This document shows positions 29,546 to 33,820 of a stretch of 64,000 bases of DNA, piece after piece (position 1 is the first letter of the stretch; the number at the start of each line of letters is the position of its first letter). Under the pieces are notes generated by a model, which did no database searches, had not been told where the DNA came from, and saw only the letters and a list, made by a program, of their open reading frames with translations. The position numbers and the translations under genes are program-made. The stretch lies in the NCBI GenBank assembly GCA_963755075.1, contig CAVWKL010000115.1:4563-68562 (forward strand). Direction: 5' to 3'. The DNA is from an uncultured Alphaproteobacteria bacterium (GTDB lineage: Bacteria > Pseudomonadota > Alphaproteobacteria > Rhizobiales > Beijerinckiaceae).

Positions 29546-30295
29546 TCACGCCGCCTCGCCGGTGAAGTCGCGGTAGCCGTTGCGCTCCAGCTCGAGCGCC
29601 AGCTCGGGGCCGCCTGACTTGACGATGCGGCCTCTCGCCATGACGTGCACCACGTCCGGCTTGATGTACTCCAAGAGCCGCTGGTAGTGCGTGATGATGA
29701 GAAAGGACCGCTTGGGGTCGCGCAGCGCGTTGACGCCCTCGGCGACGACGCGCAGCGCGTCGATGTCGAGCCCGGAGTCGGTCTCGTCGAGCACGCCGAG
29801 GCGCGGCGCGAGCAGCGTCATCTGCAGAATCTCCATGCGCTTCTTCTCGCCGCCGGAAAAGCCGACGTTGAGCGGGCGCTTGAGCATGTCCGGATCGATG
29901 CTCAAATTCTTCGCCGCGCCGCGCACCGCGCGCAAGAAATCGGGCGTCGTCAGGTCGGCCTCGCCCCGCCGGCGCCGCTGCGCGTTGAGCGCGGCCTTCA
30001 GGAACGTCATCGTCGCGACGCCGGGAATCTCGATCGGATACTGAAAGGCGAGGAACACGCCCTTGGCGGCGCGCGCGTCGGGCTCGAGCCCCAGAACGCT
30101 TTCGCCCTCGAGGAGAACCTCGCCCGACGTCACCTCATAGTCCGGCTTGCCCGCGATGACGTAGGACAGCGTCGACTTGCCCGAGCCGTTCGGCCCCATG
30201 ATCGCCGCGACTTCGCCGGTCGCCACGCTGAGGCTCAGGCCGTCGAGGATCGACTTGCCGTGGATGGAGACGCTGAGGTTTTTGACTTCAAGCAT
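29546..30295 (-). CDS. sufC: Fe-S cluster assembly ATPase SufC
   Basis: MGPNGSGKST, FLAFQYPIEIPGV, GFSGGEKKR, LDETDSGLDIDAL and ITHYQRLL. Confidence 0.96.
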   Translation of the reverse strand: MLEVKNLSVSIHGKSILDGLSLSVATGEVAAIMGPNGSGKSTLSYVIAGKPDYEVTSGEVLLEGESVLGLEPDARAAKGVFLAFQYPIEIPGVATMTFLKAALNAQRRRRGEADLTTPDFLRAVRGAAKNLSIDPDMLKRPLNVGFSGGEKKRMEILQMTLLAPRLGVLDETDSGLDIDALRVVAEGVNALRDPKRSFLIITHYQRLLEYIKPDVVHVMARGRIVKSGGPELALELERNGYRDFTGEAA

Positions 30296-30421
30296 GAAAA
30301 GTTCTTTCGGTTTCACTCTTCACTGTCGAGACAACCGAGTGCAACTTTGCGGCGAATTGATCGTCGCCGCCATCGCGGGGGGCCACGTGGGCAAAATTGT
30401 CGAGGAAAGACCAAGCCTCAG

Positions 30422-30898
30422 TCATTTAATCGACCCCTCGTTTTTCGGTTGCGGAAGAACCCTCGCGTAGTCGCACATGTTGACGGCGTAGGCCCCGTCC
30501 ACGCCATCTATTCTGGTGACCGCCACATCGGCTTGGCGATCCCAACCGATCGAGGCGAGAAACAAACCCGGTATCCCGCAATCGCCGAGTCCGAATCCCG
30601 TGTAGACATCGATTGCGCCGGAAAGATTCCCCTTCAAGGTCTCGTCGATTTGCATCCGCGCGTACACGCCGGGGGGTTGCGCGACCGCCTGCGACCGCAT
30701 CGCGACAATCTTGCCCCGAACGATGTCCGCCGCTTTCGCAAATTGTCGCGACGCTCGCTGTTCATCGGTAATCGGCTTCCCGCCGTCGATCGCCATCATG
30801 TCCAAGCACGAGCACGCGACCGCGGGCGCCGCATTGGTCACCGCTGCGACAATCGTCGAAACGCCAATCAGGAGCGCAAGAGCGGGCGACGCCGTCAT
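30422..30898 (-). CDS. Secreted TIMP/NTR-like protein
   Basis: Signal peptide ending AVA, then mature N-terminal CSC. F..A.DIVRGKIV, IDETLKG, VYT...DCG and VNMCDY follow the N-TIMP pattern. The ATG overlaps the HEPN stop. Confidence 0.65.
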   Translation of the reverse strand: MTASPALALLIGVSTIVAAVTNAAPAVACSCLDMMAIDGGKPITDEQRASRQFAKAADIVRGKIVAMRSQAVAQPPGVYARMQIDETLKGNLSGAIDVYTGFGLGDCGIPGLFLASIGWDRQADVAVTRIDGVDGAYAVNMCDYARVLPQPKNEGSIK

Positions 30899-31317
30899 TC
30901 CTTCCCCGCTTTCTCGCCCCGTGCGGCGACAAAACTCTCAACGGCGGTCCGCAGCGCCACAAGCCGTTCTTGTCGAGCTTGCAAAACGGCGGACGACACG
31001 TTCGGGGCGTCGCCCGAACCGCTCGGATAGCGAAACCGCGTCGCTGCGGAACTCCATTCTTCCACCGCAAGAAACTCAGACCGCACCGCGTTGTCCGCAT
31101 CCAACAAGTCGATCAACGTTCTCAGATTGTGCGTCGGTCCCGCCGGAATTCCCTCAACTTCAAGCACGGCGCGAAGCAGTTTCTCAGCGGCCTGTTGCTG
31201 AAAAAACGCGCTCTGCCTGGGCAAGGGTTGCAACAACATCTCGGCGGCTTTCATTTCCTCACTGGCCAGCGTCAAGAAAGTGGCGATACGCCGGCGTCGA
31301 AGGCCCGAAGCGGTCAT
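30895..31317 (-). CDS. HEPN domain protein
   Basis: SAFFQQQAAEKLLRAVL, THNLRTL and TRFRYP; coupled by an ATGA overlap to the upstream nucleotidyltransferase. Confidence 0.85.
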   Translation of the reverse strand: MTASGLRRRRIATFLTLASEEMKAAEMLLQPLPRQSAFFQQQAAEKLLRAVLEVEGIPAGPTHNLRTLIDLLDADNAVRSEFLAVEEWSSAATRFRYPSGSGDAPNVSSAVLQARQERLVALRTAVESFVAARGEKAGKE

Positions 31318-31673
31318 GGCGCGGCCGCTTCGTACACCTTGCGCCCCTCGCTCACCACGTGCGTGATAAATGACGTGTCAAGCGAAAGCGCCTCTTCGAA
31401 ATCCTCCGCGGCGCAGGGTACGACGTCGCACCCGATCCCCATTCCATTCAAAGGCCGATCGACTTTCTCGTAGTCGTTCGAACCAAGATTGGCTCCCGGC
31501 TTGCCGACGACCAGTAGATCGAAATCGCTGTCTGGCCGCGCTTCGCCCCGCGCGCGCGAACCGAAAAGCCAGATCGCGCCTGGATCGATCGCGCCCACGA
31601 TCCGAGCGACGATCGCCTGAAGCGCCTCCCGCTCCGTCGCGAACCGCCCGAAATTTGCGCGAACCGCGCTCAT
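31314..31673 (-). CDS. Minimal nucleotidyltransferase (MNT)
   Basis: IWLFGSRARGEARPDSDFDLLVV (GSx10DxD) and EGRKVYE. Confidence 0.9.
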   Translation of the reverse strand: MSAVRANFGRFATEREALQAIVARIVGAIDPGAIWLFGSRARGEARPDSDFDLLVVGKPGANLGSNDYEKVDRPLNGMGIGCDVVPCAAEDFEEALSLDTSFITHVVSEGRKVYEAAAP

Positions 31674-31840
31674 CCGACGCTCCCCTCCAAGGAAATCGCG
31701 ATCAGCTTCTGCGCCTCGACCGCGAACTCCATCGGCAATTGCTGCAGCACGTCGCGCACGAAGCCGTTGACGATCACCGGCGTCATCACTTCGGCCGAGA
31801 GGCCGCGCTGCAAGCAGCAGAGGTTTTTGACTTCAAGCAT
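31670..31840 (-). other. Chimeric mini-ORF sufC'::'sufB (56 aa): duplicated sufC start fused in frame to duplicated sufB 3' end
   Basis: 31817-31841 matches 30272-30296 (24/25) and 31670-31816 matches 32350-32496 (139/147). It translates as [56 protein letters not shown]. Confidence 0.9.
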
Positions 31841-31852
31841 GGCGCGCGTCTC

Positions 31853-32353
31853 TCATGTCTCGCCGTCGAAGTAGTCGACGCCGCTGTCCATTCGGCCGAC
31901 AAAGCGAATTCCGCCTTCGTGCGGCTTGCCCCAGTGGAACCGGGACGTGACGGCGAATTTGCCCGAGTCGGGATATTCGCAGACATCGCTTACCGGCTTG
32001 TCGGATATGCCCAGATATTTCAGCTCGGCCTCGCCGGTGTTGAGGATCTGATGCGCGAGCGCCGCGCCCTTGCCCGCCGGCGCGGCGAGCACGTCGCCGG
32101 CGCGGATCGGATAGCGCTCGGCGCCGAAGCGATATTCGCCCGTTCCCTCGAGGATGACGAACAACTCATTGGCGTTGTGATGCACGTGGAACGGAAAGGC
32201 CTTCTTCCCCGGCGGCACGATGGTGACCATGCAGCCGAGGCCGCCTGCGCCGATCAGCTCGCCGATCGCGGCGATCCTGGCGGAAAAGGCGCCGTTCGCG
32301 CCCCCGACCTCGCGCAGCGGCGCGTCGGCGACGTTGATGACGGGCTTCGTCAT
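31853..32353 (-). CDS. Cupin domain protein
   Basis: [32 protein letters not shown] and CEYPDSGK; the ATG overlaps the sufB TGA. Confidence 0.88.
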
Positions 32354-33820
32354 CCGACGCTCCCCTCCAGCGAAATCGCGATCAGCTTCTGCGCCTCGAC
32401 CGCGAACTCCATCGGCAATTGCTGCAGCACGTCGCGCACGAAGCCGTTGACGATCAGCGCCGTCGCCTCCTCGGCCGAGAGGCCGCGCTGCAAGCAATAG
32501 AAGAGCTGGTCGTCGGAAATTTTCGAGGTCGTCGCCTCGTGCTCGAACACGGCGGAGGAATTCTTCGCCTCGATGTAGGGCACGGTGTGGGCGCCGCACT
32601 GATCGCCGATCAGCAGCGAGTCGCAATTGGTGAAATTGCGCGCGCCGGTGGCGAGCCGGTGCGCCGAGACCTGGCCGCGATAGGTGTTTTGCGATTTGCC
32701 GGCGGAGATGCCTTTGGAGATGATGCGGCTGGTGGTGTTCTTGCCGAGATGAATCATCTTGGTGCCGCTGTCGACCTGCTGGCGCCCGTTGGAAATCGCG
32801 ATCGAATAGAATTCGCCGCGCGAGGACTCGCCGCGCAGGATGCAGGAGGGATATTTCCAGGTGATCGCCGATCCCGTCTCGACCTGCGTCCAGGAAATCT
32901 TCGCCCGCGCGCCGCGGCAATCGCCCCTCTTGGTGACGAAATTATAGATGCCGCCCTTGCCTTCGGCGTCGCCCGGATACCAATTCTGCACCGTCGAATA
33001 TTTGATCTCGGCGTCCTCGTGGGCGATGAGTTCGACCACCGCGGCGTGCAGCTGGTTCTCGTCGCGCTTGGGCGCGGTGCAGCCCTCGAGGTAGCTGACG
33101 TAAGCGCCTTTGTCGGCGATGATCAGGGTGCGCTCGAATTGGCCGGTGTTCTGCTCGTTGATGCGAAAATAGGTCGAAAGCTCCATCGGACAGCGCACGC
33201 CCGGCGGCACGTAGACGAACGAGCCGTCGGAAAAGACCGCCGAATTGAGCGTGGCGTAGAAGTTGTCGGTCGGCGGCACGACGGAGCCGAGATAGGCTTT
33301 CACGATCTCGGGGTGATTGAGCGCCGCCTCCGAGAACGAGCAGAAGATCACGCCGGCCTTGGCGAGCTCGGCCTTGAACGTCGTCGCCACGGACACCGAA
33401 TCGAACACCGCGTCGACCGCGACCCTCGACCCTTCGACGCCGGCCAAGATTTCGCTGTTCGACCAGCGGGATGCCGAGCTTGGCGTAGGTTCGCAGGAGC
33501 TCGGGGTCGACGTCGTCGAGCGATTTCGGCCCGGGCGTGGATTTCGGCGCCGAGAAATAATAGAGGTCCTGGAAGTCGATCTCGGGATAATCGACGCGCG
33601 CCCAATGCGGCGTCTCCATCGTCAGCCAGCGCCGGTAGGCCTCCAGGCGCCAGTCCAGCAGCCATTGCGGCTCGCGCTTCTTCTCGGAAATGAACCGGAC
33701 GATGTCTTCGCTGAGACCTTTGGGCGCCTTGTCGGACTGAATGTCCGTTACGAAGCCGTATTTATAAGCGTCGACGTCAATCGAACGAACGCGGTCGACC
33801 GTCTCTCGGACTGCCGCCAT
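32350..33820 (-). CDS. sufB: Fe-S cluster assembly protein SufB; apparent +1 frameshift at about 33454
   Basis: The N-terminal half (YKYGF, PKGLSED, VDPELL..Y.KLGIPL) and the C-terminal half ([45 protein letters not shown]) join if one base is removed. Confidence 0.93.

Follow-up and report, generated by a model that had tools for sequence, protein, structure and literature searches.

Two stacked gene units between sufB and sufC of a Roseiarcus population and their probable origin from two fused interval alleles

The sufBCDS operon of a peat/soil Roseiarcus (Hyphomicrobiales) population raises the question of how two different sets of genes came to be stacked between sufB and sufC, with duplicated ends of these core genes at their boundary. 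The window, the whole stretch of DNA analyzed (64,000 nt, from a metagenome-assembled genome (MAG) designated G000), carries on its minus strand the genes sufB, cupin, a 56-aa chimeric ORF, MNT, HEPN, a 158-aa protein gene, a 45-aa ORF, sufC, sufD, and sufS in this order (Table 1); the cupin gene is referred to as unit 1 and the genes from MNT to the 45-aa ORF as unit 2. The ORFs read match the order given in an earlier note on this DNA (sufB, cupin, sufC'/sufB joint, MNT, HEPN, a third protein, and sufC). ATGA overlaps are found at five boundaries (sufB/cupin, chimera/MNT, MNT/HEPN, HEPN/158-aa protein, and 158-aa/45-aa), and those at sufB/cupin and chimera/MNT bear out the statement that the first gene of each cargo opens by overlap with a sufB-type stop. 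A Pfam scan of the ORFs within approximately 10 kb detected Ppx, Ppk, a formyltransferase, a DUF87 ATPase, a glyoxalase, SufD, SufS, and DUF59, and no integrase or transposase, as the note had also held. The frameshift in sufB near position 33450 is an error of this MAG contig only: the Logan contig of the same run is one base shorter at 33450, and removal of this single base gives an intact 489-aa SufB.

Table 1. Features of the suf operon and of the sufB-sufC array (positions in the window)
Feature	Position	Strand	Basis and remarks
sufB	32350-33820	-	Pfam SUFBD_core 8e-79
Original sufB 3' end, 147 nt (repeat copy 1)	32350-32496	-	Repeat comparison
Class-I cupin	31853-32353	-	Pfam Cupin_2 1e-14; start overlaps sufB stop (ATGA)
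sufC start copy (one upstream base + 8 codons)	31817-31841	-	24/25 identical; AGC>TGC at codon 8
Second sufB 3' end, 147 nt (repeat copy 2)	31670-31816	-	8 differences from the original
In-frame SufC'::'SufB chimeric ORF, 56 aa	31670-31840	-	Sequence reading; exact protein also in JGI assembly
MNT nucleotidyltransferase, MntA-like antitoxin	31314-31673	-	Pfam NTP_transf_2 5.5e-11
HEPN-domain protein, partner of MNT	30895-31317	-	Pfam HEPN 1.3e-7
158-aa signal-peptide protein with CSC motif	30422-30898	-	Without Pfam family
45-aa ORF, class-II cupin deletion scar	30288-30425	-	Alignment to class-II cupin N-termini
sufC	29546-30295	-	Pfam ABC_tran; true ATG 30295-30293
sufD	28264-29538	-	ORF/Pfam scan; tblastn of SufD in relatives
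sufS	27011-28297	-	ORF/Pfam scan
DUF59/SufT-like gene	26613-27143	-	Completes the suf operon together with sufD and sufS

The duplicated ends were confirmed by repeat comparison. Positions 31670-31821 and 32350-32501 are 93% identical over 152 nt, within which the 147-nt copy of the sufB end differs from the original at the eight positions claimed, and the sufC start copy agrees with 30272-30296 at 24 of 25 positions and abuts the sufB copy without a spacer. This second copy, described earlier as eight codons, does contain them, but its 25 nt also include one upstream base because the sufC ATG lies at 30295-30293. The joint connects codon 8 of sufC to codon 49 of sufB, counted backward from the stop (stop included), and shows 0-3 nt of shared sequence, i.e., it is a non-homologous junction with at most microhomology. 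The resulting chimeric ORF begins at a sufC-type ATG 12 nt past the cupin stop, and its TGA overlaps the ATG of MNT. Three of the eight differences in the sufB copy are synonymous, with the same states seen in relatives, and the five non-synonymous ones lie in a 14-nt patch found in no other Roseiarcus genome; altogether, six of the eight fall within these 14 nt, beside an 85-nt identical core. At eight of the nine sites where the related genome G113 differs, the copy agrees with the sufB of G000 itself. No attC-type inverted repeats flank the units, the repeated boundaries being direct copies of the sufB and sufC ends.

The array is real and not an assembly artefact. Since G000 is a MAG of 306 contigs with 3.4% contamination, and relatives carrying other alleles occur in the same runs, it had to be considered whether the assembly had merged two co-occurring strains, of which one carried the cupin and the other MNT-HEPN, all the more as the unitigs are interrupted at the 85-nt exact repeat. 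However, a 655-nt Logan contig from the source run (X1) equals 31747-32401 without differences; it starts in the diagnostic patch of the copy, crosses the joint and the cupin, and reaches the original sufB end, so that the sufC'::'sufB adjacency is flanked by 70 nt and 585 nt; a mixture of strains is unable to create this adjacency because its two sides share no k-mer. A 1894-nt Logan contig of the same run extends from sufC through MNT into the sufB copy. The Logan contigs of X1 are interrupted solely at the 85-nt core, and their depth is even (10-12.5, and approximately 20 over the shared core). Furthermore, an independent 5093-bp JGI metagenome contig (sample 3300035696) from a slightly different strain carries the whole array on one piece from the sufB end to sufS, crossing both repeat copies and both cargoes, with the same genes, sizes, and spacing; in this strain, the 158-aa protein differs by two residues and HEPN by one, and the chimera, MNT, and cupin are identical. 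The evidence consists of contigs, and the phase across the 85-nt exact repeat depends on two assemblers. Neither runs X2 and X3 nor a metagenome pattern scan yielded the joint. With both cargoes on one contig and the joint bridged in another, the reading as a strain chimera is largely refuted and is now extremely improbable.

The two units differ in how they relate to this locus. In 69-72 of 80 Hyphomicrobiales loci, sufB and sufC enclose a cupin gene; sufB-cupin-sufC is the conserved arrangement across the order and the cupin the ancestral resident of the slot, and its earlier interpretation as captured cargo does not stand. The cupin of the array belongs to class I, retains intact HxHx4E...H metal-site motifs, and shares 81-86% aa identity with those of G127, G060, and G128. 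Class-II cupins are approximately 55% identical to class I, and the 45-aa ORF at the end of unit 2 aligns to their N-termini (pairwise E 2e-5). Of a class-II cupin, it has kept ~40 N-terminal codons together with the 3' end and spacer; G113 and G073 have this 3' spacer too, and it is similar to the 3' scars left by the cupin in G072. The 45-aa ORF is thus the scar of a second, divergent cupin, and deletion scars of the cupin recur across Roseiarcus genomes, plus one IS hit. Since the cupin is conserved and the 45-aa ORF is a class-II scar, the array fuses two divergent old alleles.

In unit 2, MNT possesses the nucleotidyltransferase motif GSx10DxD (GSRARGEARPDSDFD at residue 38; motif check with the range GSx(9-12)DxD) and shares 91% aa identity with the MNT of G113. 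PF05168 is the only Pfam match of HEPN (1.3e-7), and a regex check found no Rx4-6H RNase motif, the single histidine (H63) lacking an arginine 4-6 residues upstream. The 158-aa protein, previously labeled TIMP-like, gave no Pfam match even at E<=1, so that its reading as a TIMP/NTR-domain inhibitor finds no support among the Pfam profiles. Only two relatives of this protein were found among 5.8 billion proteins, giving three known sequences, and the relative with 54% identity likewise sits between sufB and sufC. The allele of G113 shows 90% nt identity to unit 2 apart from a 522-bp deletion, in which the 158-aa gene was lost between short TCGAC repeats.

The sufB-sufC interval is hypervariable in Roseiarcus, as expected from the earlier proposal of a variable slot and contrary to an invariant interval in relatives. 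At least eight states were distinguished among approximately 115 Roseiarcus species genomes, namely, empty, cupin, cupin scars, MNT-HEPN (at least three types), MNT with cupin, ParDE, cupin with ParDE, and HEC-01. Unrelated systems thus occupy the same slot (MNT-HEPN, ParDE, VapBC (PIN), and the HEC-01 A/B defence pair; PADLOC 1.6e-130 and 3.1e-53). Single-cargo versions of both units exist: cupin alone occurs in at least 12 species, including G127, G128, G060, and G019, and MNT-HEPN alone in G113, G115, G010, G073, G140, and G069, the G113 allele being the one with 90% nt identity to unit 2. MNT without HEPN occupies the slot in G070, G062, and L074. The sufB 3' ends (80-97% nt identity across the genus) and sufC (74-90%) are potential homology anchors. 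Several cargo families were met almost only in this slot, such as the relative of the 158-aa secreted protein and the MNT family, the latter being located there in 16 of the 17 best metagenome hits.

Two more genomes of the order, L184 and G177, carry arrays of the same type at the same slot; between them they contain three additional sufB-end duplicates, whose breakpoints differ. Two joints are present in L184, one of them a clear sufC'::'sufB chimera, with sufB pieces of 109 and 69 nt. The 109-nt copy is 100% identical to the resident end (109/109), whereas identity between the sufC' piece and the resident sufC reaches only 75%; an imperfect 15-nt I(V/I)NG patch (10/15 matching) marks the site of joint 1, and the sufB piece of joint 2 differs by six synonymous changes and one non-synonymous change. 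G177 has one duplicated end of 132 nt, with seven synonymous and two non-synonymous changes. Each of the four sufB duplicates, that of G000 included, continues the reading frame of an upstream start and terminates in overlap with the start of the next gene. Further arrays of the kind asked about in the earlier note therefore exist, but no two joints have the same breakpoints, so that no site-specific process is involved. Arrays of this kind are rare (approximately 3-4 in ~600 genomes of the order), and the joint of G000 is absent from every other Roseiarcus species genome examined.

Taken together, these data suggest that the array of G000 is probably the product of two old sufB-sufC interval alleles, fused by one non-homologous junction with donor DNA from a close relative. 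Unit 1 is the ancestral sufB-cupin-sufC form with a class-I cupin, and unit 2 the form shared with G113, in which MNT-HEPN and a secreted CxC protein stood ahead of a class-II cupin that later became a scar. DNA of a close relative bearing the other allele may have entered the cell and undergone homologous recombination at one of its ends, within sufB or within sufC-sufD, and its other end may have been sealed by illegitimate, in-frame joining, i.e., homology-facilitated illegitimate recombination (HFIR). Equivalently, a small circularized fragment (sufB end, cargo, and sufC start) could have inserted through a single crossover within the 147 nt of sufB homology, and both routes appear to fit the sequence of G000 equally well. 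The duplicated ends are short in every case (sufB, 69-147 nt; sufC, 0-48 nt), which is not foreseen by one-ended HFIR with random fragment ends and agrees better with a small circle or with selection against long repeats. The 56-aa ORF preserves the sufC start context and the sufB stop with its ATGA restart; as the joint is in frame and both signals are kept, translation can still be handed on to MNT and then downstream to the essential sufC, sufD, and sufS, and this is probably the reason why this joint survived.

The differences between the sufB pieces and the resident ends are mostly synonymous in G177 and at joint 2 of L184, and in G000 comprise three synonymous changes and one clustered patch; mainly synonymous differences are what pieces derived from other functional sufB genes should show. 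Sliding-window identity against ten relatives revealed no clear mosaic boundary in sufB or sufC, and no donor was found. The near identity of the copies to the resident sufB (8/9 sites in G000 and 100% in L184) points to near-conspecific donors or gene conversion, either of which would blur origin and age.

Gene conversion is central to another reading, which is possible but rather unlikely: the array would predate the split of G000 and G113, the copy would have been converted from sufB except for the 14-nt patch, and G113 would have lost unit 1 between the repeats. G000 and G113 are indeed sisters on the sufB+sufC tree and have unit 2 and the cupin scar in common, six of the eight differences lie in 14 nt next to the 85-nt identical core, the L184 copy is 100% identical despite its 75%-identical sufC' piece, and a 147-nt direct repeat would delete unit 1 scarlessly. 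However, no other Roseiarcus species genome has the joint, and outside suf, G113 is no nearer to G000 than are G004, G099, and G024 (84-87%); therefore, the sisterhood of G000 and G113 may reflect exchange at the suf locus. Less favored still, and improbable, is an unequal sister-chromosome exchange that duplicated the segment from sufB -147 to sufC +25, one cargo being replaced later by homologous recombination. The head-to-tail geometry with both flanks duplicated is the outcome of such an exchange, and the copies agree at nearly all positions in G000 (139/147) and at every position in L184 (109/109), but at least two events are required, the replacement of unit 1 would need a 25-nt right arm, and the units hold remnants of deeply different cupin classes. 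In addition, the sufC' piece of L184 and the resident sufC have diverged by 25%, and the sufB pieces of G177 and of L184 joint 2 differ mainly by synonymous changes, a divergence that foreign alleles appear to fit better than decayed self-copies.

Beyond the fusion of two alleles in G000, the sufB-sufC junction of Hyphomicrobiales might tentatively be viewed as a recombinase-free cassette platform, on which units of sufB end, cargo, and sufC start circulate and stack through selected in-frame couplers. A slot-bound pool (MNT-HEPN, ParDE, VapBC, HEC-01, and small secreted proteins) could move between species, its homology arms being two genes that rank among the most conserved in the genome, and sufC'::'sufB joints could be selected as translational couplers that keep the essential downstream suf genes expressed. 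Slot-bound cargo suggests interspecies spread of genes by lodging between highly conserved genes used as recombination arms. The joints are physical records of single non-homologous events, recurring at different breakpoints and all in frame, and thus offer a natural test of how far translational coupling limits insertions into operons. As for integrase-free stacking, which the earlier note had proposed, no integrase is present and other arrays exist, but the mechanism is already known and the arrays are rare.

HFIR or circle integration has been invoked for the integrase-free orphan arrays of T6SS, Rhs, and CDI loci (PMC5361080), such as the effector-immunity arrays of the Vibrio cholerae T6SS and the Rhs and CDI C-terminal displacement arrays (PMC5361080 and references therein). 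As in those arrays, a conserved gene is followed by a stack of modules in the absence of an integrase, internal modules are preceded by a fragment of that gene (147 nt in G000, 109 and 69 nt in L184, and 132 nt in G177), and the same modules are found singly in relatives. In contrast, the suf locus is an essential operon for Fe-S cluster assembly and does not serve toxin delivery, pieces of the two genes on either side have been duplicated and run together as an in-frame mini-ORF, and the cargo consists of toxin-antitoxin (TA) and defence genes plus small secreted proteins. The route proposed for orphan arrays combines a homologous anchor with an illegitimate join, plain homologous replacement being commoner (PMC5361080). 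HFIR was experimentally shown in Acinetobacter, Streptococcus pneumoniae, and Pseudomonas stutzeri, according to work cited in PMC5361080, and also occurs during E. coli conjugation (PMC3240628). The suf case, as read from sequence alone, resembles it in having one homologous anchor and one non-homologous junction, where microhomology is slight or absent, and in lacking a dedicated recombinase. Whereas loss of recipient DNA at the joint is usual in classical HFIR, the suf array keeps recipient DNA and duplicates short stretches of both flanks, for which a circular intermediate is at least as good an explanation.

HepT/MntA (HEPN/MNT) pairs are type VII toxin-antitoxin modules (PMC7641770, PMC11586414). 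The MNT and HEPN genes at suf are likewise small, adjacent, and joined by an ATGA overlap, with GSx10DxD in MNT; unlike HepT, however, this HEPN matches PF05168 without the Rx4-6H motif and is a putative toxin only, and MNT also occurs without HEPN at the slot (G070, G062, and L074). Like integron cassette arrays, the suf array is a linear stack of promoterless genes under an upstream promoter with repeated boundary elements, but it has no IntI, attI, or attC, its boundaries are pieces of the neighboring core genes, its breakpoints differ case by case, and each array holds only two or three units. Defence hotspots and islands in the pangenomes of E. coli and Pseudomonas are fixed sites between conserved genes with varying defence or TA systems, often without mobility genes, and their turnover is attributed to flank recombination. 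The suf slot similarly holds different unrelated defence and TA systems at one position. In contrast to these hotspots, it lies inside an operon, between the genes of two subunits of one complex (SufB and SufC), and its cargo is co-oriented and translationally overlapped with its neighbors. Variable defence and TA regions are usually described between operons, whereas this slot lies within an essential operon, among the genes for the SufBC2D scaffold subunits, where a metal-binding cupin, of which the literature searched holds no description, is a conserved though dispensable member across Hyphomicrobiales. The recombination mechanism is thus of a known kind, and the new element is a TA/defence slot inside a housekeeping operon.

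On the minus strand, the genes are arranged in the order sufB, a cupin gene, a 56-aa ORF, MNT, HEPN, a gene for a 158-aa signal-peptide protein, a 45-aa ORF, sufC, sufD, sufS, and a DUF59 gene, and a repeat finder together with this gene order recovered all of the elements described in the earlier note, coordinates included, with a small correction to the start codon of sufC. The 56-aa ORF consists of sufC codons 1-8 joined in frame to the final 48 codons of sufB, and ATGA overlaps occur at the sufB/cupin, chimera/MNT, MNT/HEPN, HEPN/158-aa, and 158-aa/45-aa boundaries. Neither an integrase nor attC sites were found near the array, which is therefore not an integron, and a promoter and terminator scan of 26500-34300 gave counts that were not above those of shuffled sequence. 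The frameshift in sufB is spurious and confined to the MAG contig; the Logan assembly of the source run (X1) is one base shorter there, and deletion of one base leaves an intact SufB ORF of 489 aa. Upstream of sufB, a DUF87/HerA-like ATPase gene is also split across two frames, which may reflect a second contig error or a genuine pseudogene.

Coordinates of the features of the suf array and of related loci (window features lie in or next to the minus-strand suf operon)
Feature	Sequence	Position	Detail
sufB-end repeat	window	31670-31821 and 32350-32501	152 nt, 93% identical
sufC-start repeat	window	31817-31841 and 30272-30296	24/25 nt identical
sufC ATG	window	30295	
158-aa CxC secreted protein	window	30422-30898	no Pfam family matched
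HEPN protein	window	30895-31317	without Rx4-6H RNase motif
Class-I cupin	window	31853-32353	metal-binding
sufB frameshift	window	33440-33460	near 33450
DUF87/HerA-like ATPase gene	window	34246-36129	frames 35150-36129 and 34431-35108
ATPase + DUF4276 pair, G076	L053	291-2092	PADLOC candidate HEC-01, 1.6e-130 and 3.1e-53
ATPase + DUF4276 pair, G079	L054	1388-3159	PADLOC candidate HEC-01, 1.6e-130 and 3.1e-53
Isolated sufB C-terminal fragment	L231	4001-4156	51 aa
Relative of the 158-aa protein	L241	4001-4342	54% identity

Because the MAG of the window comprises 306 contigs with 86% completeness and 3.4% contamination, an assembly chimera of two strains had to be considered. However, the sufC start and the sufB end have no common sequence, and a strain mixture would be unable to produce their new adjacency. 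Furthermore, a 655-nt Logan contig of run X1 matches 31747-32401 with zero differences and leads from the diagnostic patch of the internal sufB-end copy through the joint and the cupin gene to the original sufB end, and another of 1894 nt leads from sufC through MNT into the internal copy; the contigs of this run are interrupted solely at an exactly repeated core of 85 nt, and their depth is even (10-12.5), with approximately twofold depth over the shared core. In JGI metagenome 3300035696, a single contig of 5093 bp passes through both repeat copies and both cargoes, containing the sufB end, the cupin (166 aa), the 56-aa ORF, MNT (119 aa), HEPN (140 aa), the 158-aa protein, the 45-aa ORF, sufC, sufD, and sufS with gene sizes and spacing equal to those of the window. 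The chimera, MNT, and cupin are identical between the two, with two changed residues in the 158-aa protein and one in HEPN (R94Q, within a conserved RFRYP stretch). The JGI contig supplies a second strain and a second assembler, and with the Logan contig over the joint it confirms the duplication and the joint observed in the earlier note. The exact 26-nt joint pattern had no match in JGI metagenome contigs, in a search that may omit records close to the genome of the window, and the contigs of three other runs (X2, X3, and X4) contain 100%-identical pieces of both cargoes and do not cover the joint.

The distance between sufB and sufC was obtained from match coordinates for approximately 115 of the 129 Roseiarcus species genomes, and approximately 50 of these intervals were read directly. 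The gap is just 16-65 bp in approximately 85 genomes, and at least 12 carry the cupin alone (~505 bp). Both cupin ends are retained around a deleted interior in G072, G075, and G071; in G024 the 5' end is clear and the 3' remnant less so, and G004, G099, and G074 have a 28-bp scar with the cupin start still at its head. In G077 (L037, L060), a class-II cupin contains an IS element bounded by terminal inverted repeats of 24 nt, and the assembly is broken at this position. Other slots contain MNT-HEPN of several divergent types (G113, G115, G051, G010, G073, G140, and G069), MNT followed directly by the cupin (G070 and G062), ParDE (G047), cupin and ParDE (G006), or an ATPase and DUF4276 pair that matches a PADLOC candidate system (G076 and G079). 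The slot contents differ even among close relatives of the window's own genome, G000 (84-91% nucleotide identity), and sufC of G073 is 89% identical to that of G000 whereas its MNT is merely 57% identical; therefore, cargo exchange outpaces the divergence of the flanks. Thus, the junction is a variable slot, as the earlier note had inferred, and the single-cargo versions that it proposed to look for exist, namely the cupin alone and, in G113, the unit next to sufC (unit 2) at 90% nucleotide identity, minus 522 bp lost between short TCGAC repeats. The insertion points of MNT-HEPN vary from allele to allele, and in G073 (L043) a module of another type is inserted after cupin codon 3, so that the cupin start and the remaining N-terminus lie on opposite sides. 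At L038, L041, L074, L085, and L221, MNT occurs in the slot without a HEPN partner and with the cupin or sufC as the very next gene, and these genes may be orphan antitoxins.

Several cargo genes appear bound to this slot. Sixteen of the 17 best metagenome relatives of MNT lie directly downstream of sufB, with sufC next wherever the contig is long enough, and some belong to organisms with a SufD only 38-44% identical to that of the window. The 158-aa protein has two relatives among 5.8 billion proteins, one in the JGI strain and the other between sufB and sufC of a different operon. HEC-01 is present in the slot of two separate Roseiarcus species (ATPases 78% identical in amino acids), as is ParE in two species (72%). 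Such a distribution would be expected if the cargo spread mainly by recombination in conserved flanks; an old insertion followed by loss is the alternative.

The earlier note had also taken the cupin for captured cargo, which is contradicted by its distribution. A profile built from ten cupins retrieved 80 loci (L151-L230) from species genomes across Hyphomicrobiales (Devosia, Bauldia, Mesorhizobium, Chelatococcus, Methylocapsa, Hyphomicrobium, Xanthobacteraceae, and others), and the cupin gene lies between sufB and sufC at 69 of them, with one flank beyond the contig at three more. Therefore, sufB-cupin-sufC is the ancestral arrangement, and the cupin, whose metal-binding motifs are intact, seems to be an accessory component that the suf operon has conserved. 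Genes were added on both sides of it, and it was lost repeatedly in Roseiarcus through deletions that left scars and through one IS insertion. In Devosia/Devosiaceae MAGs (L168, L186, L190, L194, and L197), the stretch between sufB and sufC is occupied by two or three divergent cupin genes in tandem, which share 42-61% identity with the query. The 45-aa ORF before sufC aligns to the first ~40 residues of class-II cupins (pairwise E 2e-5), and the cupin 3' end and spacer of G072 are matched by the final ~30 nt ahead of sufC, a stretch also common to G113 and G073. Unit 2 was therefore formerly sufB-MNT-HEPN-158aa-cupinII-sufC, a form comparable to the MNT and cupin form that survives in G070 and G062. 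In contrast, the cupin next to the resident sufB (unit 1) is of class I and only 53-57% identical to class II, which rules out two copies of one segment; the array thus combines two alleles of a single locus that differ deeply.

The internal copy is closest to the sufB of G000 itself (139/147), followed by the best relative (137/147). Of its eight differences, three are synonymous and represent states present in other species too, and five are non-synonymous and fall within a 14-nt patch that is absent from all 128 other genomes of the genus. The 27-nt variant patch of this copy was found in no sufB of these 128 genomes, even with up to three mismatches, and no mosaic boundary was visible in sufB or sufC by sliding-window identity against ten relatives. 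G113 is the sister of G000 in the sufB and sufC tree, and outside the suf operon it is no nearer to G000 than G004, G099, and G024 (84-87%); it was rejected as the donor because the internal copy is nearer to the sufB of G000 than to its own (132/147). Accordingly, the recombination partner was a close relative, nearer than any species genome compared, or, alternatively, later gene conversion homogenised the two sufB-end copies.

Duplicated sufB ends were searched for in 50 Roseiarcus intervals, 76 further loci with both flanks, and 400 genomes each sampled from the order and the class, and two additional arrays were recovered; G568, an unpublished genome in the class sample, contributes to none of the conclusions. 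L184, a Hyphomicrobiales MAG with a SufD only 32% identical to that of the window, has the order sufB, 105-aa ORF, 51-aa chimera, cupin, second sufB piece, 175-aa ORF, PIN-domain (VapC-like) gene, and sufC. Its chimera joins ~16 sufC codons to the final 35 sufB codons (109 nt at 100% identity with the resident end), the joint falling in an imperfect patch of 15 nt where both genes encode I(V/I)NG, and its second piece comprises the final 23 sufB codons after a probable 9-codon sufC remnant. The 175-aa ORF has no Pfam match and, with the PIN-domain gene, is read as a putative VapBC pair. G177, from another family, has the order sufB, 138-aa secreted protein, 49-aa ORF, cupin, 86-aa membrane protein, glyoxalase, and sufC; the 49-aa ORF ends in the final 43 sufB codons (132 nt with the stop, 92% identical), and its N-terminal 7 codons match sufC at 9/21 nt, too weak an agreement to show descent from sufC. 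Thus, sufB-end arrays, which the earlier note proposed to look for with joints at the same breakpoints, exist elsewhere, but their breakpoints differ. G188 is a possible fourth array interrupted by a contig end, with a 77-nt overlap between two contigs at the sufB end. Other candidates were rejected owing to a SufD match (G227), two full suf systems (G300, G624, and G812), a scaffold gap of N (G919), a frameshift (G901), a contig break in the slot (G051), or such a break together with the IS insertion in the cupin (G077). A search of the 5.8 billion proteins with the 56-aa chimera gave 2851 short SufB C-terminal matches, with a SufC-like start in none of the best 120; of three that were inspected, two are sufB genes with a frameshift and one is an isolated fragment surrounded by transposases. 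On the 113-kb contig of L231, a sufB C-terminal fragment with unusual substitutions has IS240-/IS91-type transposases and an integrase around it and no suf genes nearby, and may be a sufB end carried away on mobile DNA. Roughly 3-4 arrays occur in ~600 genomes of the order, and none were found among ~270 SufB-bearing genomes of other orders; the arrays are rare, yet they are independent events.

In all four duplicated pieces, the sufB end is in frame with an upstream start codon and its stop overlaps the start of the next gene (4/4), a pattern expected by chance about once in 81. The importance of the in-frame chimeric ORF probably lies in carrying translation onward, which would keep ribosomes going from the cupin into MNT and toward sufC, sufD, and sufS. 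Relative to the resident end, the G177 piece has seven synonymous and two non-synonymous differences, and that at the second joint of L184 has six and one, including an AGC-to-TCA serine switch. These mostly synonymous differences do not fit neutral decay of a self-copy; on one reading, the source of each piece was another, functional sufB in a donor genome, and selection on the mini-ORF peptide itself could also account for them.

In the simplest account, DNA from a relative with another slot allele would enter and recombine with the locus, with homology in a conserved flank resolving one side and illegitimate end joining the other, i.e., homology-facilitated illegitimate recombination (HFIR). 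A small circularised 'sufB end-cargo-sufC start' fragment that integrated through a single crossover would give the same product and would account more naturally for the consistent shortness of both duplicated flanks; the sequence does not discriminate between these two routes. Plain tandem duplication followed by allele replacement requires more steps and agrees poorly with the presence of two classes of cupin and with the synonymous differences. Overall, the interpretation in the earlier note receives partial support, the cupin not being cargo.

Full-text searches on sufB/sufC with toxin-antitoxin, hotspot, cupin, or HEPN brought up no account of this kind of slot. The principle of recombination was known before, and what is new is the setting: the present array is a clear example of integrase-free stacking where it would not be expected, and its architecture, though rare, recurs and can be tested. 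The closest described systems come from Vibrio cholerae T6SS clusters, with their orphan immunity arrays, and from Rhs and CDI loci, with their C-terminal displacement arrays; in these, modules arriving downstream of a conserved gene displace the older ones, and fragments of that gene persist between the modules (PMC5361080). HFIR was proposed as the route for these arrays (PMC5361080) and has been established by experiment (PMC3240628 and references in PMC5361080). Contrary to integrons, which possess an integrase and attC sites, the suf array has neither, and the slot acts as a core-flanked defence hotspot would, with the difference that it is placed inside an operon.
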